A DNA stretch of 15,489 nucleotides from a virus, in the UHGV virus genome UHGV-0097030. One strand, 5' to 3'. How positions within the stretch are numbered: the stretch's first letter is position 1; every line of letters starts with the position of its first letter. Of this stretch, positions 6,486 to 7,410 are shown piece after piece. Position numbers and translations under genes: made by a program. The notes below the pieces were generated by a model that saw only the letters and a program-made list of their open reading frames with translations, was not told the DNA's origin and did not search any database.

Positions 6486-6514
6486 ATAGTACGATTTGTA
6501 CTTTATCGAGTCAA
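6486..6514 (-). promoter_or_regulatory. PL promoter with overlapping OL operator
   Basis: Minus strand: -35 TTGACT (6509-6514), 17-nt spacer, -10 TACTAT (6486-6491), about 40 nt upstream of nutL. Overlaps a 15-bp palindrome AGTACGATTTGTACT (6488-6502). Confidence 0.65.
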
Positions 6515-6569
6515 TACAAAATGTTCTAAATATAATTAGTTTTTTATAACGTTTTGTATTTAATGGGTT

Positions 6570-6609
6570 TATAATTTGGAAAAAGAAAACCCGACGCTAA
6601 GGTCGGGTT
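6570..6609 (-). terminator. Intrinsic terminator downstream of cI
   Basis: Hairpin AACCCGAC-loop-GTCGGGTT (6588-6609), followed on the minus strand by TTTCTTTTTCC. Located about 30 nt 3' of the cI stop. Confidence 0.5.
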
Positions 6610-6639
6610 ATTGTTGTGTGTTTTAGAGTGGTGAGGCTG

Positions 6640-7299
6640 TTAACTAAATGTCTCTTCAGGCCACTGGCTGGCGATAACTTTCCCTACTACGGAACAGCTA
6701 TCATTGCATGGAATCATTGGATATTGCGGGTTTAGTGGCTGTAGGAACACCTGACCGCTATCCCTGATCAGTTTCTTGAAGGTAAACTCGTCACCACCAA
6801 GTCTGGCTATGCAGAAATCACCTGGCTCAACAGCCTGCTCGGGGTCAACGAGAATTAACATCCCGTCAGGAAAGCTTGGCTTCGATCCTGTTGGCGCGGT
6901 CATGGAATTACCTTCAACTTCAAGCCAAAACGCACAATCACTGGCTTTTTTGGTTGTGCTTACCCATCTCTCCGCATCACCTTTGGTAAAGGTTCTAAGC
7001 TCAGGCGAGAACATCCCGGCCTGAACATGAGAAAAAACAGGGTACTCATATTGTTTTTTAACGGGGGCAGATGAGTATTCGCCAACAGGTGAAAATGTAC
7101 CGTCGTGGTTGAATGAGACGTTATCAATACCAAGGTATTTAAACACCACACCAATCTCGTCAAGAGATGGATGACGAGATCCGCGCAACCAGTGACCAAT
7201 TCCACCCTGCGTCATACCAAGCTCTTCAGCTAACTTCTCTTGAGTTATGCCGAGCTCTTTCATTCTGGATCTAGCCAGTTCATACCATTTCATTTTCAT
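6640..7299 (-). CDS. cI: CI-type prophage repressor (HTH plus S24 LexA-like peptidase domain)
   Basis: N-terminal HTH ([23 protein letters not shown]). Ala-Gly cleavage site (VQAGMF). S24 catalytic Ser in GNSM and Lys in FTFKKL. Start placed at ATG 7299 ([10 protein letters not shown]...); alternatives are 7293 and 7335; the track start 7341 is a TTG. Confidence 0.85.
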
Positions 7300-7355
7300 A
7301 CCCTTATTATTACGCTCTGTACTAAAACCATCCATGCACAAGATGTATTTTTTGT

Positions 7356-7384
7356 TTGCATTCTAAAAGTACATATCGTATTAT
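7356..7384 (+). promoter_or_regulatory. PR promoter with overlapping OR operator
   Basis: -35 TTGCAT (7356-7361), 17-nt spacer, -10 TATTAT (7379-7384), upstream of cro. Operator-like AGTACATATCGTATT (7368-7382) overlaps the -10 and resembles the OL palindrome. Confidence 0.6.
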
Positions 7385-7410
7385 TGTTTCATGGTTACTA
7401 TGGAGGGCAT

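Follow-up and report, generated by a model that had tools for sequence, protein, structure and literature searches.

A probable VT2-Sakai-type cI/Cro immunity switch with six putative operators in virus genome UHGV-0097030

The stretch of the viral genome UHGV-0097030 analysed here (the window, 15,489 nucleotides, numbered from its first letter) carries between positions 6486 and 7410 the control regions of a divergent cI/cro pair, and sequence comparison makes it very probable that they form a cI/Cro immunity switch in an E. coli prophage, lambdoid or P22-like, with immunity of the VT2-Sakai type. The cI repressor (219 aa) is encoded on the minus strand at 6640..7299 and Cro (71 aa) on the plus strand at 7411..7626, with 111 bp between the two genes. 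The assignment to the VT2-Sakai type rests on the Stx1 converting phage AP005153, since the cI proteins are identical through residue 46, including all of the helix-turn-helix (HTH) region, with seven differences in all, and the Cro proteins differ at one position (70/71 residues identical). The cI-cro segment displays 92.8% nucleotide identity to AP005153, to Stx2 II (AP005154), to Nil2 (AJ413274), to phage 2851 and to the PA series, and megablast matches of 99% were found in phages vB_EcoP-720R6, 683R2, Louie, Dewey, and phi458. At least 80% of a 1.3-kb query from the region is present in 205 of 5,426 complete E. coli genomes. For comparison among viruses, 80 loci whose Cro shares 99-100% identity with that of the window were collected from IMG/VR, comprising 30 distinct right operator (OR) and 42 distinct left operator (OL) sequences; exactly the cI of the window is encoded by 44 of them. 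GenBank annotation and published work already cover the immunity type, the mosaic repressor, and the six operators; the switch is widespread and not new.

The predicted operator set comprises six 15-bp cores, three at OL and three at OR, each within 17 bp and together following the consensus A(G/A)TAC-N5-GTA(C/T)T. The register of the cores was fixed by aligning them mutually and against the annotated operators of a related phage. On the left, OL1 (6488..6502; AGTAC and GTACT around gattt, AGTACGATTTGTACT) is a perfect dyad covering part of the -10 hexamer and the spacer of the early promoter PL, OL2 (6513..6527; AATAC and GTTCT around aaaat) overlaps the -35 hexamer of PL by 2 bp, and OL3 (6546..6560; ATAAC and GTATT around gtttt) is an operator in the AP005153 annotation. 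On the right, OR3 (7309..7323; ATTAC and GTACT around gctct) overlaps the -10 hexamer and the spacer of a candidate maintenance promoter, PRM, OR2 (7335..7349; TGCAC and GTATT around aagat), the weakest site, abuts its -35 hexamer, and OR1 (7368..7382; AGTAC and GTATT around atatc, AGTACATATCGTATT) overlaps the -10 hexamer and the spacer of PR. AP005153 is annotated with 17-bp "putative operators", three at OR and three at OL, that correspond to all six sites of the window. The same six operators are also tabulated for Sakai-type PST1 phages such as PA4 (PMC4587872, Table S5), where Fattah et al. 2000 and Tyler et al. 2004 are given as the source; compared with AP005153 and with that table, the operators of the window differ only in spacer or flanking bases and in one half-site base of OL3. 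A full-text literature search revealed no paper containing the OL1 sequence, and a scan of the whole window at Rfam gathering thresholds matched no family.

The promoter scan placed PL on the minus strand at 6514..6486 (-35 TTGACT at 6514..6509, a 17-nt spacer, -10 TACTAT at 6491..6486) and PR on the plus strand at 7355..7384, with TTTGCA or TTGCAT (7355-7361) as the -35 hexamer, TATTAT (7379-7384) as the -10 hexamer, and a spacer of 18 nt if TTTGCA is taken. OL1 and OR1 each fill the spacer of their promoter and overlap its -10 hexamer by 4 bp, and a gap of 5-6 bp separates OR2 from the -35 hexamer of PR downstream. An original prediction, made from the letters of the window, had described two related 15-bp palindromes overlapping the -10 elements of PL and PR, and both lie exactly where it had put them, as OL1 and OR1. 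The additional TTTGTA/TACAAA half-sites that it mentioned turned out to belong to OL2 and OL3. Its operator formula AGTAC-N5-GTACT captured real dyads but only two of the six sites clearly, leaving OR3 and OR2 unlisted, and the consensus is broader than proposed. Another promoter-like match, inside cro on the minus strand (7455..7427), was set aside, as the scan gave three promoter-like sites where 2.5 are expected by chance.

The recurrence of the dyad was evaluated over the window. With at most one mismatch, AGTAC-N5-GTACT matches at three positions (6488, 7309, and 7368) against 0.23 expected, all of them within OL or OR; a motif search of this kind had been suggested with the original prediction. 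At least three matches were reached in none of 200 dinucleotide-preserving shuffles. In a leave-one-out analysis, a symmetric position weight matrix (PWM) was built from five sites and the sixth was sought among 15,473 window positions, with the training sites set aside: OL1, OL2, OL3, OR3, and OR1 each ranked first and OR2 ranked third. The PWM scores (20.3 for OL1, 18.8 for OR1) follow the order OL1 > OR1 > OL2 = OL3 = OR3 > OR2. An unbiased enumeration of all k-N-k dyads in both control regions returned AATAC-N5-GTATT as the top pattern, with six matches, and a repeat search found 6485-6504 and 7366-7385 to be an inverted pair of 20 nt with 90% complementarity.

Could the 15-mers be alike only as similar AT-rich promoters, by chance or by promoter descent, with dyads that are not operators? 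The region is indeed AT-rich, each of the two 15-mers overlaps a -10 hexamer, and at up to two mismatches the count in the window (7 versus 3.7 expected, 4 of the 7 in OL or OR) is not significant overall. However, the same dyad recurs at four more sites away from the -10 hexamers of PL and PR, the shuffles never attain the count seen at one mismatch, the half-sites and spacers are conserved in exact register as described below, and cI and Cro have matching recognition helices. We regard such a resemblance without operator function as hardly credible. Three kinds of further candidates were rejected: a seventh site at 6529-6543 (PWM score 8.3, also seen in the dyad enumeration), which sits in the most variable stretch of OL; an alternative OR2 nearer to OR1, since 15-mers around 7350 fit the motif poorly and their half-sites are not constant across relatives; and motif matches outside OL and OR (5993, 14395, 15275, and others), which are at chance level.

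The pattern of variation among the relatives argues for operators in the same register. Variation affects only 5 of the 60 half-site columns but 60 of the 127 remaining non-coding columns (Fisher p = 6e-8), and when a mask of the six sites was slid from -8 to +8 bp, the minimum of variation was found at shift 0. Substitutions within the sites fall mostly in the 5-bp spacers. The half-sites of OL1 are unchanged across the 42 OL variants, and the variation of OL2 is mostly confined to its spacer. OR3 is nearly invariant in the 30 OR variants, its sole half-site change (GTACT to GTATT, C to T) still being within the consensus; OR2 has conserved half-sites and varies at spacer positions 7342-7343, while OR1 varies at spacer position 7377 only. 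The window itself carries a T at 6552, within the spacer of OL3, a position occupied by C in each of the other 41 OL variants, and its OL region has an identical counterpart in only 1 of the 78 loci of the OL alignment.

Both proteins display the domain content of a phage switch. According to Pfam, cI consists of an HTH_3 domain (residues 11-58, E = 8e-11) and a Peptidase_S24 domain (residues 87-209, E = 9e-29), whereas Cro is an HTH_3 protein (E = 1.4e-12); the adjacent cII gene product matches Phage_CII. From residue 84 onward, cI is about 98% identical to the lambda cI structures 3bdn and 8gmu, and its motifs QAGMF, GNSMT, and TFKKL are the same as in lambda cI, which identifies A94-G95 as the cleavage site and S132 and K175 as the catalytic residues. 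The N-terminal domain, in comparison, gives only a weak alignment to its isolated lambda counterpart (E = 0.003). In that alignment, the acidic residues E21 and E25 of cI helix 2 (QEKLAEEL) lie opposite lambda E34 and D38, which are positive-control positions. The two proteins of the switch are homologous to each other: the N-terminal domain of cI is 35% identical to Cro over 62 aa (BLASTP, E = 5e-13), 17 of 36 residues are identical in the HTH block, and helix 3 reads QGGIGHWLR in cI and QGAIGHWES in Cro. This likeness had been noticed in the original prediction, and the two peptides quoted there (cI 29-42 and Cro 24-37) are identical at 9 of 14 residues. Searches of PDB sequences with Cro gave 28tn ("lambda repressor-like protein"), P22 c2, and the 434 repressor, the latter two at E = 0.006 to 0.1; neither these searches nor Pfam matched the window Cro to a lambda Cro structure or family. 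Judged by sequence, this Cro is an all-alpha HTH_3 paralogue of the N-terminal domain of its own repressor, of the 434/P22 class rather than the lambda class. Motif statistics, leave-one-out ranking, phylogenetic footprint, promoter overlap, and domain content all favour the predicted sharing of one operator set by homologous cI and Cro proteins. Two open reading frames (ORFs) overlapping or antisense to cI (6960..7205 minus and 6776..7024 plus) were treated as spurious; the first is annotated only as the hypothetical "b65" in AP005153.

The comparison of operators and HTH regions with known immunity types, also advised with the original prediction, leads to the VT2-Sakai type. In the VT2-Sakai RefSeq entry NC_000902, cI (10900-11595, locus L085 2101-2796) is annotated in two pieces, a 510-bp coding sequence and a "c1 repressor protein fragment", while it is intact in AP005153; the split may be a frameshift or an annotation artefact of the reference. 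Is this immunity functionally distinct from that of lambda? Partial cross-immunity might arise from cross-reaction on the operators or from mixed oligomers formed via the shared C-terminal domain, and heterodimers with lambda cI are plausible because the C-terminal domains are about 98% identical. As cited in PMC10742460, Fattah et al. described for VT2-Sa CI a lambda-like C-terminal domain, a dissimilar N-terminal domain, and some cross-immunity with lambda; in electrophoretic mobility shift assays (EMSA), lambda CI shifted all six VT2-Sa operators, with apparent dissociation constants of 3.7-6.4 uM versus 0.2-3 uM on lambda sites (PMC10742460). These values were obtained with micromolar protein and 50 nM DNA (PMC10742460), which is close to non-specific binding, the window operators share no obvious consensus with the lambda operators, and the N-terminal domains can only be aligned weakly. 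We consider it improbable that the immunity is not functionally distinct. The original claim of a specificity different from lambda is supported by the operators, the weakly related HTH regions, and the micromolar binding of lambda CI, but has to be qualified by the cross-immunity attributed to Fattah et al. in that citing paper.

At the sequence level, a non-lambda immunity between lambda-like nut sites is correct, because lambda-like flanks surround two patches that are specific to the immunity type: one, at about 6481-6581, holds OL, and the other, at about 7051-7632, holds cro, OR, and the N-terminal domain of cI. Window 6386-6480 corresponds with 96.8% identity to lambda 35489-35583, a segment covering nutL and the PL leader to near the PL start, and the lambda homology stops at about 6480, about where the PL start is expected from a -10 hexamer at 6486-6491. 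In a side-by-side comparison with lambda, nutL (6416..6446, minus strand) revealed a boxB GCCCTGAAGAAGGGC (6430..6416) that is exactly that of lambda, its stem having also been picked up by the promoter and terminator scan, and a boxA-like GGCTCTTA (6446..6439) that differs at the first base, while in nutR (7635..7666, plus strand) boxA CGCTCTTA (7635-7642) and boxB GCCCTGAAAAAGGGC (7652-7666) are both identical to lambda. The nut sites had been called lambda-like in the original prediction, and this holds for three of the four boxes to the base. Further segments match lambda N (5891-6194, 97% identity), the lambda cI C-terminal domain (6646-7050, 93%), and lambda nutR and cII (7633-7949, 67%).

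Between the genes, a candidate PRM, a weak promoter with a weak -35 hexamer, was read by eye on the minus strand at 7334..7306 (-35 TGGATG at 7334..7329, a 17-nt spacer, -10 AATAAT at 7311..7306), and its -10 hexamer is followed by AAGGGT and then by the cI ATG (7299). Transcription from it would start at or beside this ATG and give a leaderless or near-leaderless cI mRNA; a start at or next to the cI initiation codon is the lambda arrangement. AP005153 has an annotated maintenance promoter at the corresponding position. Behind cI, the terminator scan found a strong, bidirectional intrinsic terminator hairpin (6588..6609, minus strand), followed by TTCTTTTT on the minus strand. Window 6582-6617 shows 89% identity to lambda 35799-35834, just downstream of rexB, the segment where the lambda timm terminator sits. 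The 79 bp between the cI stop (6640) and OL3 contain only this hairpin, and no ORF of at least 40 aa was found from OL3 to the cI stop, as had been predicted in stating that no rex-like genes lie between cI and PL. This interval (6561-6639), at the "rex position", appears as a cargo slot: it is compact, with a 79-bp gap like that of the window, in about 57 of the 80 relatives, and holds 1.0-1.5 kb in the others (for example L001 34-1159 and L085 806-1599). In VT2-Sakai and AP005153, the slot encodes a 174-aa hypothetical protein (orf22 / b63).

By analogy with the lambda, 434, and P22 paradigms, from which we infer operator binding, occupancy order, cooperativity, looping, PRM activation, and the leaderless start, the switch may work as follows. 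Dimers of cI would bind the six dyad operators via the HTH_3 N-terminal domain, with the lambda-type S24 C-terminal domain serving autocleavage and oligomerisation. At PL, dimers on OL1 and OL2 would cover the -10 hexamer and reach onto the edge of the -35 hexamer, and at PR, a dimer on OR1 would cover the -10 hexamer; bound repressor is therefore proposed to shut off both early operons. At OR2, cI would activate PRM and thus its own synthesis, possibly through E21 and E25 as aligned with lambda E34 and D38, while OR3, lying over the PRM -10 hexamer, would mediate negative autoregulation. Because the recognition helices are near-identical, Cro is proposed to read the same sites; it would compete for the operators and turn down PRM and later PR and PL. 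SOS-activated RecA would induce self-cleavage of cI at Ala94-Gly95, catalysed by Ser132 and Lys175. The timm-like terminator would end the cI transcript 79 bp before OL3, without rex-type cargo. As the C-terminal domain is of the lambda-identical type (about 98%), contacts between these domains are expected to provide pairwise cooperativity and OL-OR looping over about 0.82 kb.

The spacing of the sites raises the question whether the same switch is wired unlike that of lambda. Measured in those of the 80 loci in which the script found the sites, the distance never changes for OL1-OL2 (25 bp) and OR2-OR3 (26 bp), whereas OR1-OR2 is 33 bp in the window and 32-35 bp among relatives and OL2-OL3 is 33 bp in the window and 33-34 bp among relatives; the annotated lambda operators are 20-24 bp apart, centre to centre. 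The promoter-proximal pair of OR is one helical turn wider than that of lambda, and the tight pair of OR is OR2-OR3. Cooperative pairs might then be OL1-OL2 and OR2-OR3 with OR1 standing alone, so that PRM autoregulation and the induction threshold would differ from the lambda paradigm despite the lambda C-terminal domain, a reading that is also favoured by the PWM order, in which OR3 is not the weakest site, as it is reported to be in lambda (PMC10742460). Several points speak against it: a distance of 33-34 bp is about one helical turn beyond 23-24 bp, and with the phase roughly kept, cooperativity might persist; the spacing changes arise from the length of T runs, and as these are prone to slippage, the variation may be neutral; and a PWM score does not equal an affinity. 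We consider it possible but rather unlikely. That cooperative filling of OR2-OR3, or reliance on the short 0.8-kb OL-OR loop, could give a PRM autoregulation or induction set-point unlike that of lambda appears a little more doubtful still. If true, a different wiring would matter, as the same immunity type controls the Stx2 phage Sp5.

Coming back to the switch of VT2-Sakai type as a whole, a few points weigh against it as drawn here. The half-sites of OR2 match the consensus at only 7 of 10 bases, and their conservation could partly stem from the adjoining PRM -35 hexamer. The candidate PRM scores below the threshold of the promoter scan. With OR1-OR2 at 33 bp instead of the 24 bp of lambda, and at 32-35 bp among relatives, lambda-style cooperativity of this pair is therefore not assured. 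In addition, the accessible literature yielded no footprint or EMSA with cognate cI or Cro, the sole EMSA found having used lambda CI; the cognate repressor has apparently never been footprinted there, although the VT2-Sakai-type switch governs induction of the Sakai Stx2 prophage (Sp5). For operator assignments that are so far "putative", as far as we found, the in-register footprint and the leave-one-out ranking contribute comparative support. The only part with residual novelty is the arrangement of the sites, whose unusual OR1-OR2 spacing raises the question of how the C-terminal domain of lambda functions with another operator geometry.

The neighbouring genes place the module in a P22-like or lambdoid mosaic, unlike the Stx phages that share it, as judged from the content of the left operon and of the replication genes. 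The left operon (2716-4556, minus strand) encodes an Erf-like annealing protein, SSB, the anti-RecBCD protein Abc2, and CIII. On the right, O is accompanied by an IstB/DnaC-like ATPase (9517-10380, plus strand), in which the lambda P family was not detected. The lambda-like N gene (5815..6147, minus strand) has ATT at the position of its start codon (6145-6147), where all 54 related loci with the same N have ATG; the context is TGACAGGAGAATCCAGAT[G>T]GATGCACAA. The Arg-rich boxB-binding peptide has no other in-frame start ahead of it, and N is therefore probably dead or poorly translated, barring a sequencing error. Downstream of N in the PL operon, a predicted 149-aa protein with hydrophobic stretches (5165-5614, minus strand) matches PHROG 3054 (unknown function) and has no Pfam match; its location would suit an exclusion or moron gene. 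Upstream of cII, by 37 bp from its start codon, lies TTGCGTTTCTTTGC (7693-7706, plus strand), a direct repeat TTGC-N6-TTGC and a candidate establishment-promoter site, the repeat being of the type bound by lambda CII at PRE. Between cII and O, a 214-aa ORF (8059-8703, plus strand) carries T5orf172/MUG113 domains and, faintly, matches an endonuclease family of PHROG; homologues were detected in only three of the fetched loci, each 100% identical, so that the gene looks like a mobile or moron insertion of sporadic occurrence.

Compared with known systems, the switch of the window shares with lambda the cI and cro genes diverging from a tripartite OR, a second tripartite operator, OL, at PL, operators overlapping the -10 hexamers of PL and PR, an O2 site beside the -35 hexamer of PRM (here a candidate), a leaderless-type cI start (here predicted), an almost identical S24 C-terminal domain, and a lambda-like N, nutL, nutR, and terminator behind the cI operon. 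It differs from lambda in operator sequence, in the only distantly related N-terminal domain of cI, in the class of Cro, in the absence of rexA and rexB, in the OL-OR distance (0.82 kb versus 2.4 kb in lambda), and in the wider OR1-OR2 interval. With 434 and P22, it shares a repressor whose N-terminal domain is an HTH_3 paralogue of Cro, the near-identical recognition helices here being predicted to read one operator set. Their sites are of another kind, however, as the 434 operator is ACAA-N6-TTGT and the P22 site is 18 bp long, while the half-site here is A(G/A)TAC with a 5-bp spacer; protein identity to both is low, and the C-terminal domain of cI is that of lambda. Most probably the switch is of the type of VT2-Sakai (Sp5) and its relatives, which have the six operators in the same order and the same OL and OR2-OR3 spacing. 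In AP005153, OR1-OR2 is 1 bp shorter and N is HK97-like, in contrast to the lambda-type N and nut of the window; VT2-Sakai-type phages carry about 1.5 kb between OL3 and cI, including orf22 (174 aa), where the window has its gene-free 79 bp; and unlike in the Stx phages, the rest of the window consists of P22-like or lambdoid early genes without stx context.

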